64,000 bases of DNA from Candidatus Zixiibacteriota bacterium (GTDB lineage: Bacteria; Zixibacteria; MSB-5A5; DSPP01), in contig JAKEHY010000024.1 in assembly GCA_022614805.1 (NCBI GenBank), forward strand, positions 1,844 to 65,843, in the 5' to 3' direction. The translations under genes and the position numbers were made by a program. Positions 13,370-15,107 of the stretch are shown in pieces. Positions within the stretch are counted from its first letter, which is position 1. The number at the start of each line of letters is the position of its first letter. The notes under the pieces are model-generated. The model was not told the DNA's origin and ran no database searches. It saw nothing but the letters and a program-made list of their open reading frames with translations.

Positions 13370-14710
13370 TCAGGCAATCGTTTTAGCCTCCAAAAGCTCG
13401 TTCCAGCGGGTGGTGCAGCGCGGGGAACGGCGGCTCGATTTCATCCGCCAGCTTTGCAGCAGGCCGGCGGCGGCAAAACGCAGGGCGCCGGAGCCAAGCC
13501 GGGCGTTTACTTCGTCCAGTGCCTGCATCAGTTTTCCAGCGCTCCCGCGGTTTTTGCCGTCAAAAATGTCGGTTTGCACTTCTTCCGTAGGAACCAACCC
13601 GGAAAACACAACCCCCGCTTTTTTGAACCGGCCGTCCGCAAAAAAGATTTTTTCGGCTTCCCGCAGGGCATACCGTATCAGCTCCGGCGTGCTGTCGGTG
13701 GCCACCGGCAACTCGACGGTCGAGGAATGCGTTCGGGCCTGTTCGCTGTGGGGGCGGGTTATGCAAAAGACCGTCAGATGCTTTGCGGAAAGCCGGTCTT
13801 CGCGCAACGTTTCGGCCGCCTGGCTGGTGAATTCCGCCACCGCCTCCTTCAGTTCATTCAGTTTTTCGACGGCCCGGCCGAAGGAGCGGGAGCAGAGGAC
13901 ACTTTTGCGGGGGGAGCGAACCATTTCCAGAGGCAGACAGGAGATGCCGCGCAGTTCAAGGAGAATGCGCTGCCCGACTATCCCCATCCGCTTCAAAATC
14001 CATTGGTCATCCGCTTGCCGAAGCTTGTGGGCGGTCTCTATCCCCCAGCTTTTCAGCCGCCTTTCGCCGCTGGGGCCGATGCCCCAGATTTCTCCCACCT
14101 CTATTTGGGCCAGCCGTTCCTCCGGGTCGGGAAGGGCCGACCAATCCATCACCCCTTTCAGTTCGGGTCGCTTTTTGGCCTGTTTATTGGCCAGCTTGGC
14201 CAAAGTTTTGGTGGGGGCGATGCCAATCGATATCGGAATGCCGGTCCACTTTTTGACCGTGGCGACGATTTGGCGGGCGTAGTCGGAAAGGCCGGCCCGC
14301 TCAAAGCCGGAAAGGTTCAAAAAGACTTCGTCAATCGAATAGATTTCCCGTTCCGGCGTGAATTGCGCCAGCGTATGGATGACCCGCCGGGACATATCGC
14401 CGTAAAGGGTAAAATTGGCGGAGTAGACCCGGACGTTCGCTTGTTCAATCAAATCCCGCACCTCAAAAAACGGGACGGCCATTTTGATGCCCAGCGCTTT
14501 GGCCTCGTTGGAGCGGGAGATGATGCAGCCGTCGTTGTTGGAAAGGACAACGACCGGCACTCCCTCCAGGTTGGGATTAAAAACCCGCTCGCAGGAGACG
14601 TAGAAGTTGTTGCAGTCAACCAGGGCGAAGATGGTTTTGTTTGAAGCCACATCCGAAACCGGCTGCCCGCCACAGGCCGGTTTTTCCCGGTCACAAAGTA
14701 TGGATGACAT
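13370..14710 (-). CDS. umuC: Y-family error-prone DNA polymerase (UmuC / DNA polymerase V catalytic subunit)
   Basis: 446 aa. N-terminal IFALVDCNNFYVSCERVFNP..VVVLSNNDGCII is the Y-family (UmuC/DinB) palm signature. Overlaps umuD by 20 nt. Confidence 0.88.
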   Translation of the reverse strand: MSSILCDREKPACGGQPVSDVASNKTIFALVDCNNFYVSCERVFNPNLEGVPVVVLSNNDGCIISRSNEAKALGIKMAVPFFEVRDLIEQANVRVYSANFTLYGDMSRRVIHTLAQFTPEREIYSIDEVFLNLSGFERAGLSDYARQIVATVKKWTGIPISIGIAPTKTLAKLANKQAKKRPELKGVMDWSALPDPEERLAQIEVGEIWGIGPSGERRLKSWGIETAHKLRQADDQWILKRMGIVGQRILLELRGISCLPLEMVRSPRKSVLCSRSFGRAVEKLNELKEAVAEFTSQAAETLREDRLSAKHLTVFCITRPHSEQARTHSSTVELPVATDSTPELIRYALREAEKIFFADGRFKKAGVVFSGLVPTEEVQTDIFDGKNRGSAGKLMQALDEVNARLGSGALRFAAAGLLQSWRMKSSRRSPRCTTRWNELLEAKTIA

Positions 14711-15107
14711 AGGTTACCACGCCCCAGATTTCTATGCTCTCCGGTTTGCCTGACGGGCCGTTCTGCGAAAGAAGGGAGGGAGTCCTTTTTTTCAGCCGGT
14801 CAAAGTAGCCGACGACAAACTCCCCTTCCACCACGGCGATGACCACCCGGCCGGGGGCGGGCTCGAGCGAGCGGTCAACAATGAGCAGGTCGCCGTGGTG
14901 GATGCCGGCTTCCAACAGGGCATCCCCTTTGGCCCACAGGAAAAAAGTGGCGGCCGGGTGTTTTACCAGATGGGCGTTCAGGTTCAAAACCTTTTCGGCA
15001 AACGGCTCGGCGGGGGAGGGAAAGCCGACCGCGGCCGGAGTCTGTTCGGAGGCGTCGGCGCCGGCCCGGACGGGAGGCTGGTTGAACATTGGAATGTAGG
15101 GCGCCAT
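14691..15107 (-). CDS. umuD: UmuD-like S24 peptidase-fold protein with catalytic Ser replaced by Ala
   Basis: 138 aa. Aligns to E. coli UmuD through the GFPSPA..HP.ATFF..GD..GI..GDLLIVD core. Motif is [11 protein letters not shown] where UmuD has [11 protein letters not shown]. Cleavage-site position reads VG rather than CG. Confidence 0.8.
   Translation of the reverse strand: [138 protein letters not shown]

Follow-up and report, generated by a model that had tools for sequence, protein, structure and literature searches.

In Escherichia coli, self-cleavage of UmuD is an obligatory safety step before Pol V acts. This RecA*-mediated reaction has been proposed as a drug target and is the textbook safeguard that limits SOS mutagenesis at the post-translational level. 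The cleavage is intermolecular within UmuD dimers, and in the cryo-EM structure of UmuD with RecA* the residues Y52, V54, F94 and D91, E93 form the RecA F203 pocket and an acidic patch (PMC9926225). Full-length UmuD restrains UmuC (PMC3901139; PMC5342242), and the S60A variant is non-mutable and UV-sensitising (PMC3901139). The published model of Pol V places the free N-terminus of UmuD' (Gly25) beside the UmuC active site (PMC11791011, PMC12926913).

Here we analysed a 64-kb window, the whole stretch of DNA under study, in which the open reading frame at 14691..15107 on the minus strand (stop codon 14691-14693) was confirmed as a umuD homologue, as described in the initial annotation. The 138-aa product belongs to Pfam Peptidase_S24 (PF00717, E=2.8e-16), and with 111.0 bits it marginally passes the cut-off of 110 for NCBIfam PRK10276 (Pol V autoproteolytic subunit). 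A phmmer search against the PDB matched E. coli UmuD (8gmt_B, E=8e-21, query residues 27-136), and the best Foldseek matches of the AlphaFold model were UmuD' and UmuD (1umu, 1ay9, 8gmt; E about 2e-7) with target-normalised TM-scores of 0.72-0.74 (0.73 for the best match, 1umu), consistent with an S24/UmuD' fold that is kept in the predicted structure. The model is a monomer with low confidence over residues 1-40 and is silent on the docking site of the arm. The HumD profile NF051876 was missed by the query (68.1 bits against a cut-off of 120), in which 26 residues precede the GFP motif. A UmuDAb-type regulator was rejected, since the 138-aa protein has no HTH domain and S24 is its sole Pfam domain, and no Pfam match to YolD was obtained for the query. 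A UmuD-specific HMM scan of all ORFs found no second UmuD-like gene within the window, a scan that also missed the XRE/S24 regulator described below. The window also encodes a T9SS sorting domain, an observation more in keeping with the FCB group.

The catalytic dyad of UmuD is missing from this protein. The HMMER alignment paired the query segment akGDAlle with asGDSmid, placing Ala63 (GCC, 14919..14921, minus strand) at the nucleophile Ser60 of E. coli UmuD, and paired eFvvGyfd with eFtvKklq, placing Gly100 (GGC, 14808..14810, minus strand) at the general base Lys97. Placement of the catalytic columns was identical in MAFFT and family-HMM alignments of 120-300 homologues, and none of the alignments made put a Ser or Lys at these columns of the query. 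Where the scissile bond (Cys24-Gly25 or Ala-Gly) would lie, the sequence and the alignments give Val27-Gly28 (GTC GGC, 15024..15029, minus strand). Of 200 homologue domains that keep the dyad, 188 (94%) carry Ala-Gly at P1-P1' and one carries Val-Gly, as compared to Val-Gly in 32 of 80 dyad-less domains. The changes of Ser60 to Ala (codon GCC, 14921-14919) and of Cys24-Gly25 to Val-Gly that had been proposed by eye were thus borne out, the former by three independent alignments, while the suggestion that the Lys may be displaced was an understatement, as it is replaced by Gly in the query and by Gln in most orthologues. Candidate substitutes for the dyad were rejected as well: the GDA(L) segment holds no conserved Ser or Thr (Thr occurs in one orthologue), and Lys105/Lys106, 5-6 residues past the Lys position, belong to a predicted helix and would be irrelevant without a nucleophile. 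With the nucleophile, the general base and the usual P1 residue all missing, the protein (hereafter UmuD*) is predicted to be unable to self-cleave, and the headline of the initial annotation, a non-autocleaving UmuD homologue, holds on every testable feature of the sequence.

Absence of the dyad is a fixed trait of a monophyletic clade that comprises at least 24 protein clusters from independent assemblies and is represented by 35 sequences in our tree. The Ala at the nucleophile position proved conserved in orthologues (31 of 33), and the Lys column is occupied by Gln or Gly in all 33 sequences and by Lys in none. The P1 residue is mostly Val but varies to Ala and Thr, and the GFP segment is degenerate in some members (P0021, P0023, and P0043). 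Comparison with four orthologues gave dN/dS values of 0.18-0.34 for the dyad-less umuD and 0.13-0.22 for umuC, and we conclude that the clade is under purifying selection. A decaying pseudogene, or a catalytic codon misread in sequencing or assembly, would have nothing in its favour besides the substitutions themselves, and is extremely improbable and already refuted by the conservation data, namely identical substitutions in the at least 24 independently assembled clusters, an intact reading frame, the dN/dS values, and an N-terminal tip and arm that are conserved like the core.

Loss of the dyad is not confined to this clade. In a sample of 300 UmuD-like domains the dyad was lost about 29 times, so the self-cleavage residues have apparently been lost repeatedly, also in other lineages, and pairing with umuC was observed in every dyad-less lineage examined (the window, L001-L005, L071, and L072). 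Tandem UmuD-UmuD fusions were also found; in these, one domain bears an arm but is dead, and the other is active but has no arm. A scan of genome contigs with the query returned no clade members, only relatives of at most 54% identity that were mostly cyanobacterial and betaproteobacterial active UmuDs. The submitter labels of the orthologues conflict, naming either candidate division Zixibacteria or Verrucomicrobiae. PGAP names the orthologues 'autoproteolytic subunit', a label explained by the marginal pass of the PRK10276 cut-off. No description of natural UmuD homologues lacking Ser and Lys was found in the full-text literature searched, which does not in itself prove novelty.

The partner polymerase is intact. 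The dyad-less umuD lies directly upstream of umuC (13370..14710, minus strand) and overlaps it by 20 nt, and the two genes are translationally coupled. The order of the two genes is identical in L001-L005, L071 and L072, and an overlap with an intact umuC is a constant feature of the dyad-less gene. The umuC gene encodes a UmuC-type Y-family polymerase of 446 aa (Pfam IMS, IMS_C, DUF4113) that matches PRK03609 over its full length with 386 bits; its D..FY..E and SIDE motifs align to solved Pol IV, showing that the catalytic motifs are intact, and the DUF4113 region, the UmuD'-binding C-terminal region, is present. The first gene of the operon (15109..16410, minus strand) encodes a 433-aa radical-SAM and helix-hairpin-helix protein, a COG4277/TIGR03916 relative that is related to 'DNA modification/repair radical SAM protein' with 284.6 bits, which is under the cut-off of 343.5, and it is co-operonic with the dead umuD in all five orthologous loci.

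Upstream of the operon lies an AT-rich divergent promoter region (16411..16624) with conserved blocks and repeats, namely a 17-nt direct repeat at 33-bp spacing and inverted repeats of 15-17 nt. The alignment of this region from the five loci had a mean identity of 71%, with AAAAGTCAAGTATTTTTTTA nearly invariant, and the region presumably carries one or more putative operators. On its other side, an XRE-type HTH and S24 peptidase regulator is encoded on the plus strand (16625..17311), the true start of which is probably the ATG at 16634 (MEIGERIK). As initially noted, this LexA-like protein keeps both the Ser (GDSM) and the Lys (VKQLK); it is not directly adjacent to umuD, however, but divergently transcribed beyond the radical-SAM gene. 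Its dN/dS is 0.04-0.10, and all five loci share the same arrangement of a repressor with an intact dyad divergent from the radical-SAM/HhH gene, dead umuD and umuC. No obvious Ala-Gly was seen in the regulator at the column aligned with the LexA cleavage site, and in L004 and L005, dyad-less lineages that are more distantly related, no S24 gene lies next to the locus.

The N-terminal region of UmuD* combines strongly conserved and variable segments. The tip (residues 1-12; 15072..15107, minus strand) has the clade consensus MxPY[IV]PMFNQPP, and the retained UmuD'-type arm (residues 26-40; 14988..15032, minus strand) is of normal length, while it is shortened in HumD and in the P0024 clade. Mean pairwise identity within the clade is 0.90 for the tip and 0.88 for the arm, compared to about 0.50-0.51 for the linker and 0.50 for a basic loop in the core. 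At the arm residues G, F, P, S, P and A, no variation occurs among active UmuD, HumD and the dead clades. Lineage L003 also has an upstream ATG and the residues MTPYVP. Judged from its sequence, the tip may be the counterpart of the UmuD 'FPLF' arm motif, although 19 residues separate it from the former cleavage site downstream, as compared to approximately 6 for FPLF; the PMF motif is shifted 13 residues upstream in the clade, so that the F18-equivalent column holds Glu or Asp. 'ADAS'-like residues shared by the UmuD* linker and the cleavage-site region of the regulator were judged to be a chance likeness, because they are missing in half of the clade while the regulator sequence is invariant. 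In the core, a short predicted helix (RLKKR) and a variable loop with many Ser, Pro, Lys and Asn residues (residues 102-125; 14733..14804, minus strand) occupy the place of two hydrophobic beta-strands that follow the Lys position in active UmuD homologues; AlphaFold places the helix at 102-107 and gives pLDDT values below 50 at residues 111-117. The equivalents of the RecA*-pocket residues are Phe55, Leu57, Phe97, Glu94, and Glu96, and clade members show little or no variation at four of the five positions, whereas the D91 position is Glu, Asn or Asp. The predicted determinants of RecA* groove binding are in this respect kept in the query.

On balance, UmuD* is probably a pseudo-protease that serves as a cleavage-independent accessory subunit of Pol V and receives the damage signal only via the repressor. 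The conversion of UmuD to UmuD' seems, from the sequence evidence, to have been abandoned in this bacterium. The irreversible licensing step of Pol V would thereby be dropped, and DNA damage would be sensed once only, by self-cleavage of the repressor, leading to de-repression of the cassette of radical-SAM/HhH protein, UmuD* and UmuC. The uncleaved subunit would then be a direct accessory factor of the UmuC polymerase, acting via the retained GFPSPA arm and the C-terminal dimer strand, and perhaps also via the conserved N-terminal tip, which would be 'born free' like the arms of YolD/YqjX. Alternatively, the tip might be a protease degron that limits the lifetime of the subunit. P1 HumD, non-cleavable E. 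coli UmuD variants and YolD/YqjX are precedents for small subunits that act free of cleavage. Of the three consequences originally suggested for the loss of the nucleophile, a different regulatory logic fits best, and would take the form of repressor-only control with no proteolytic licensing. What counts against a cleavage-independent accessory subunit is that uncleaved UmuD is normally an inhibitor and not an activator, as judged from the non-mutable E. coli S60A; that the 26-residue extension might fit poorly next to the UmuC active site; and, likewise, the normal length of the arm and a regulator without an obvious Ala-Gly at the LexA-aligned site.

The same E. coli observations on S60A and on the restraint of UmuC (PMC3901139, PMC5342242) raise the question of whether UmuD* is instead a permanent brake or manager resembling full-length UmuD, which keeps UmuC or a different polymerase non-mutagenic, in a checkpoint-like or higher-fidelity state, and never becomes an activator. 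E. coli UmuD2C and UmuD2-DinB behave in this way, and the full-length arm with a conserved P-M-F motif resembling UmuD FPLF, as well as the retained RecA*-pocket residues, would suit such a role. It is nevertheless hard to explain why UmuC should be paired with nothing but its own inhibitor, as UmuD* is the sole small subunit encoded with umuC and is coupled to it at every locus. Purifying selection also acts on umuC, the catalytic motifs of which are intact, and we consider a permanent brake rather unlikely.

The RecA*-pocket residues bear also on a reversible and non-proteolytic sensing of RecA*, in which docking in the filament groove would displace the arm and activate UmuC only for as long as filaments last. 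Phe, Leu, Phe, Glu/Asn/Asp and Glu at the positions of the F203 pocket and acidic patch agree with this, but these residues are conserved in most family members and may belong to the structural core, the column equivalent to F18 holds Glu or Asp with PMF 13 residues upstream, and RecA binding is here a prediction from the sequence, making such sensing improbable. At a similarly low probability, the dead protease could be a reversible RecA*-filament sensor or adaptor, in which the tip rather than a Gly exposed by proteolysis would occupy the UmuC cleft, binding would license the polymerase, and the radical-SAM/HhH protein would be the third part of a damage-tolerance module. Finally, the initial annotation suggested activation in trans by the neighbouring S24 protein. 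Trimming of the arm to a UmuD'-like form by the S24 domain of the regulator, or by a second UmuD, is favoured by the intermolecular cleavage within UmuD dimers (PMC9926225), by the linkage of a dyad-intact regulator in all five close loci, and by the tandem fusions, which show that one active site can serve the arm of another domain. However, the P1 residue is mostly Val and also Ala or Thr, as opposed to the Ala-Gly of 94% of the dyad-bearing domains, the GFP segment is degenerate in P0021, P0023, and P0043, L004 and L005 have no S24 neighbour, and there is no co-variation between the UmuD* linker and the regulator. The suggestion is thus disfavoured, and we regard trans cleavage as very unlikely.

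If UmuD* acts as a cleavage-independent subunit, the safeguard would have been discarded while UmuD and UmuC were kept under selection, in a whole lineage and apparently in many others. The clade would then offer a natural test of whether uncleaved UmuD can activate UmuC, and a natural experiment on whether the purpose of cleavage is timing, irreversibility, or the mere removal of an inhibitory arm. Because the annotation says 'autoproteolytic', homology-based surveys of 'Pol V' would over-state the reach of the E. coli regulatory logic.

Compared to E. coli UmuD, the query shares the S24/UmuD' fold, the GFPSPA arm, the RecA*-pocket residues, the C-terminal dimer strand, the overlap with umuC and a similar length, of which about 26 residues form an N-terminal extension. 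In contrast, it lacks the Ser-Lys dyad (Ala63, Gly100), has Val-Gly in place of Cys/Ala-Gly, carries a P-[LM]-F motif at the extreme N-terminus that is separated by a 13-residue variable linker, and has a helix and a basic disordered loop instead of the two strands after the Lys. In functional terms, its counterpart is the engineered E. coli S60A, which is itself non-mutable. Two other non-cleavable E. coli variants are partly UmuD'-like because their arm is undocked from the globular domain, namely UmuD-3A (Beuning 2006) and UmuD 18, which gave low mutagenesis only (PMC5342242); unlike the query, both are laboratory constructs with an intact dyad. P1 HumD is, like the query, a natural member of the UmuD family with no need for cleavage, and it is LexA-regulated, but it starts at MGFPSPA, and is hence born as UmuD', and keeps the Ser and Lys. 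The short-arm dyad-less clade (P0024, P0034, P0051, P0060, P0070, and P0109) resembles the query in its Ser to Ala change, P1 Val and umuC partner, whereas it has approximately 10 residues before GFP as in HumD, a Lys to Arg change, a retained beta-hairpin and no adjoining radical-SAM gene or regulator, and forms a separate lineage in the tree. YolD/YqjX of Gram-positive bacteria are likewise small subunits with no enzymatic activity whose genes accompany that of a UmuC-like polymerase, and their unprocessed N-terminal arm is predicted to reach into this polymerase (PMC6511836, PMC12926913); they belong to an unrelated family with no detectable sequence similarity and only an SH3-like core in common. 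The divergent regulator has the same domain make-up and intact Ser-Lys dyad as the XRE/S24 COG2932 'non-canonical LexA' proteins of Bacteroidetes, to which it is likened by domains alone and which control umuDC and COG4277 radical-SAM genes (PMC8565304). The operon described here holds gene types with known SOS regulation, namely umuDC and a COG4277-type radical-SAM gene.

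The gene at 14691-15107 (minus strand) encodes a 138-residue protein with an S24 peptidase fold (Pfam PF00717, E=2.8e-16), whose closest solved structures are E. coli UmuD (8gmt_B, E=8e-21) and UmuD' (1umu, E=3e-20), and which narrowly passes the NCBI UmuD model PRK10276 (111.0 bits vs. a cut-off of 110). A HMMER alignment to UmuD placed Ala63 (GDAL; codon GCC, 14921-14919) at the catalytic Ser60 of E. coli (GDSM), Gly100 (FVVGYF; codon GGC, 14810-14808) at Lys97 (FTVKKL) and Val27-Gly28 (codons GTC GGC, 15029-15024) at the Cys24-Gly25 bond, all on the minus strand. Direct reading of the window DNA confirmed the three substituted codons, and residue placement was identical in a MAFFT alignment of 120 homologues and when 300 domains were aligned to a family HMM. 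The by-eye alignment of the initial annotation, including its Ser to Ala and Cys-Gly to Val-Gly substitutions, was thus correct; its suggestion that the lysine may be displaced understates the change, since the general base is absent rather than displaced. The sequence determinants of S24 self-cleavage are an Ala/Cys-Gly bond and a Ser-Lys dyad (restated in PMC8565304), and by this measure the protein lacks all three elements.

Ser and Lys were present in 91 of the best 120 database relatives. Among these relatives, the MAFFT alignment revealed a 24-cluster block (listed as P0001-P0019, P0021, P0023, P0043, and P0056; 50-100% identity to the query) carrying the signature GDAL...(G/Q)YF, with the Lys column occupied by Gly or Gln and the Ser column by Ala throughout except for Glu in P0056, so that the alanine is indeed kept in orthologues. 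When 300 UmuD-like domains were placed on a neighbour-joining tree, this block came out as one dyad-less group, monophyletic and comprising 35 sequences. Pairwise comparison of the window locus with the four orthologous loci for which DNA sequence was available gave dN/dS values of 0.18-0.34 for the dyad-less umuD, 0.13-0.22 for umuC, 0.08-0.17 for the neighbouring radical-SAM gene and 0.04-0.10 for the regulator gene, indicating that the dyad-less umuD is functional and under constraint only slightly below that of its polymerase partner. The dyad-less state is thus conserved and not an accident.

Conservation along the protein is strongly uneven within the close clade, mean pairwise identity being 0.90 for an N-terminal tip (residues 1-12), 0.51 for a linker (13-25), 0.88 for the arm with the GFPSPA segment (26-40), 0.81 for the core (41-101), 0.50 for a loop (102-125) and 0.85 for the C-terminal strand (126-138). 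The tip motif, M-x-P-Y-[IV]-P-M-F-N-Q-P-P, is also encoded from the first ATG in the orthologous locus L003, though the gene caller picked the second Met there. Its P-M-F resembles P-L-F of the UmuD FPLF motif; however, P-L-F lies about 6 residues before Ala-Gly in active homologues, whereas P-M-F lies 19 residues before Val-Gly, with the variable linker between. Active homologues continue after the Lys position with two hydrophobic strands (e.g., RLALLSENENYPPLEL), while the clade has RLKKR and then a segment of variable sequence, rich in Ser, Pro, Lys, and Asn. The AlphaFold model (mean pLDDT 74.8; core and last strand >85) shows residues 102-107 as a short helix, followed by a loop of low confidence (pLDDT <50 at residues 111-117), and its best structural match is still UmuD'. 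The UmuD-RecA* cryo-EM structure (PMC9926225) shows a pocket of Y52, V54, and F94 that takes up RecA F203, and an acidic patch made of D91 and E93. The equivalents of Y52, V54, F94, D91, and E93 are Phe55, Leu57, Phe97, Glu94, and Glu96; of these five predicted contact positions, four show little or no variation across the clade, and that of D91 is Glu, Asn, or Asp. In a sub-branch of the clade (P0021, P0023, and P0043) the N-terminus is long and Lys/Arg-rich and some members have the GFPSPA arm swapped for unrelated sequence, which suggests that the UmuC-contacting segment may be diverging further.

The dyad-less umuD overlaps umuC by 20 nt. The 446-aa UmuC matches PRK03609 over its full length, has IMS, IMS_C, and DUF4113 domains and carries the catalytic motifs D..FY..E and SIDE. 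Directly upstream and co-directional lies a gene (15109-16410, minus strand) for a 433-aa radical-SAM and helix-hairpin-helix protein with an intact CxxxCxxC motif, related to TIGR03916/COG4277 (284.6 bits, below the cut-off of 343.5). Such proteins are normally paired with a uracil-DNA-glycosylase-like gene; this partner is absent in all five loci, where the radical-SAM gene heads the umuD-umuC operon. The layout of regulator, radical-SAM gene, dyad-less umuD and umuC is repeated in the orthologous loci L001/L002, L003, L071, and L072. The flanks are housekeeping genes (psd, pssA-like, transaldolase, and truA) syntenic in L001, and the locus is therefore chromosomal and not an obvious mobile element. 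Elsewhere in the window, a PolX-type polymerase gene (pol-beta thumb, HhH, and PHP; 20616-22346, minus strand) is separated from the regulator gene by 3.3 kb. Two adjacent ORFs (11553-13127, plus strand) carry SBBP-like beta-propeller repeats (TIKYDSNGN...), the second ending in a dockerin-like GDLNLDG...ADLNCNG segment, and in L071 the operon has a comparable SBBP gene at its flank. A Lon protease gene (23-2470, plus strand) stands at the start of the window; Lon degrades UmuD in E. coli, and a link to the dyad-less protein would be conjectural.

The divergent gene 16625-17311 (plus strand) encodes an XRE-HTH/S24 regulator with Ser and Lys intact (GDSM and VKQLK), probably starting at ATG 16634 (MEIGERIK), the start used in its orthologues, and not at GTG 16625. 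It has AASLGG where LexA has VAAGE, and PLFADAASLGGG aligns opposite the Ala84-Gly85 bond of E. coli LexA, which leaves its own cleavage site ambiguous. The 214-bp, strikingly AT-rich region between the divergent genes (16411-16624) is alignable in all five loci, with near-invariant blocks such as AAAAGTCAAGTATTTTTTTA, and contains predicted sigma-70-like divergent promoters and inverted repeats, including a 15-nt inverted repeat (ATATTATACGTTTAT / ATATACGTATAATAT), as well as a 17-nt direct repeat, CT(G/A)TTTTATCATATTAT, in two copies 33 bp apart. The regulator leader contains a hairpin rich in GC, CCCCGACAGGTCGGGG (about 16584-16599), which among the five loci is found only in the window and L071. 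Since XRE/S24 'non-canonical LexA' proteins run SOS regulons including umuDC and a COG4277 radical-SAM gene in Bacteroidetes (PMC8565304), damage-inducible repression by the regulator would, by analogy, be the natural reading of the locus. A spore-photoproduct-lyase-family gene (PF20903) was observed near the regulator in L001 (3663-4697), with a wHTH gene, and in L072 (509-1537), where an HD_assoc_2 gene and an ORF without annotation accompany it; the window has none of these genes, and its regulator gene adjoins one for a CDP-alcohol phosphatidyltransferase.

The initial annotation had also raised, as one option, activation of the dead UmuD in trans by the nearby S24 protein. UmuD cleavage is intermolecular (PMC9926225), which provides a biochemical precedent, but of 200 homologue domains that bear the dyad, 188 have Ala-Gly at P1-P1' and one has Val-Gly, while dyad-less domains show Val-Gly (32), Ala-Gly (24), or Thr-Gly (10). 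Moreover, P1 varies between Val, Ala, and Thr inside the clade, the GFP segment is wholly lost in some members, and no S24 gene adjoins the locus in the more distant dyad-less lineages P0018 and P0024. Trans-cleavage thus fits the observations poorly.

Dyad loss extends beyond the clade. When the 150 relatives returned from 1.84 billion cluster representatives were added to the sample, Ser/Lys was missing in 85 of the resulting 300 UmuD-like domains, a sample biased towards the query, and parsimony on the crude neighbour-joining tree of this biased sample gave about 29 dyad state changes; even so, loss of the dyad in UmuD-like proteins is clearly recurrent. Its commonest pattern in the sample combined Ala for Ser with Arg for Lys. 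In one dyad-less subset, P0024 and its relatives form a clade with a short arm like that of HumD; another comprises single-chain tandem UmuD-UmuD fusions of 220-290 aa (P0132-P0136, P0139, P0140, P0142, P0152, P0188, P0208, P0220, P0234, P0236, P0242, P0253, P0267, and P0268). In many fusions the first domain has the arm and the Ala/Cys-Gly site with the dyad lost (e.g., Ala/Arg), and the second has Ser/Lys without the arm, an arrangement that amounts to a hard-wired form of the intermolecular cleavage geometry of UmuD. NCBI names the dyad-less orthologues P0006, P0008, P0121, and P0122 'translesion error-prone DNA polymerase V autoproteolytic subunit'; PRK10276 passes them by 1 bit, and the naming is a systematic over-annotation.

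As judged from sequence, the catalytic apparatus and canonical scissile bond are absent and selection keeps the protein, which in every case is paired with an apparently active UmuC, as predicted from motifs. We infer that it would be an accessory subunit independent of cleavage, leaving the repressor as the sole proteolytic damage sensor in the module. In the published Pol V model the GFPSPA arm is the segment contacting UmuC (PMC11791011, PMC12926913), and its conservation argues that this interaction is probably preserved. The main rival, that the product is a permanent brake or manager, seems unlikely to us; it draws on E. coli UmuD S60A, which is non-mutable and UV-sensitising (PMC3901139), and on the free UmuD' N-terminus lying beside the UmuC active site in the Pol V model (PMC11791011, PMC12926913), where the 26-residue extension may clash, both of which count against a simple UmuD' mimic. 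Any model must also explain the strictly conserved N-terminal tip, for which a new 'born-free' tip entering UmuC, a docking or clamp-type motif, or, by analogy, a Lon/ClpXP degron are candidates. Lon/ClpXP degrons map to the arm of E. coli UmuD.

No description of a natural dyad-less UmuD was found in a full-text literature search or in the principal comparative literature dealing with bacterial Y-family polymerases and translesion synthesis. What is new appears to be a cassette of the Pol V type that has dispensed with proteolytic licensing and whose subunit has been remodelled. This may be somewhat surprising to the specialist and is directly testable, the functional consequence being a prediction, although the drift of an accessory subunit towards a pseudo-enzyme, which underlies it, is a familiar concept.

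A cleavage-independent accessory subunit is plausible in view of known systems. Variants of E. coli UmuD that cannot be cleaved and whose arms are undocked are partial UmuD' mimics (PMC5342242), as is the non-cleavable UmuD with an undocked arm of Beuning 2006, as cited in PMC3901139, and the unprocessed N-terminal arm of YolD/YqjX-type subunits is predicted to enter their polymerase (PMC12926913). Phage P1 HumD (L073, 604-993) starts with MGFPSPA, exactly at the UmuD' N-terminus, and is thus born as UmuD'; it never needs cleavage yet keeps both Ser and Lys, the reverse of the situation in the window protein.
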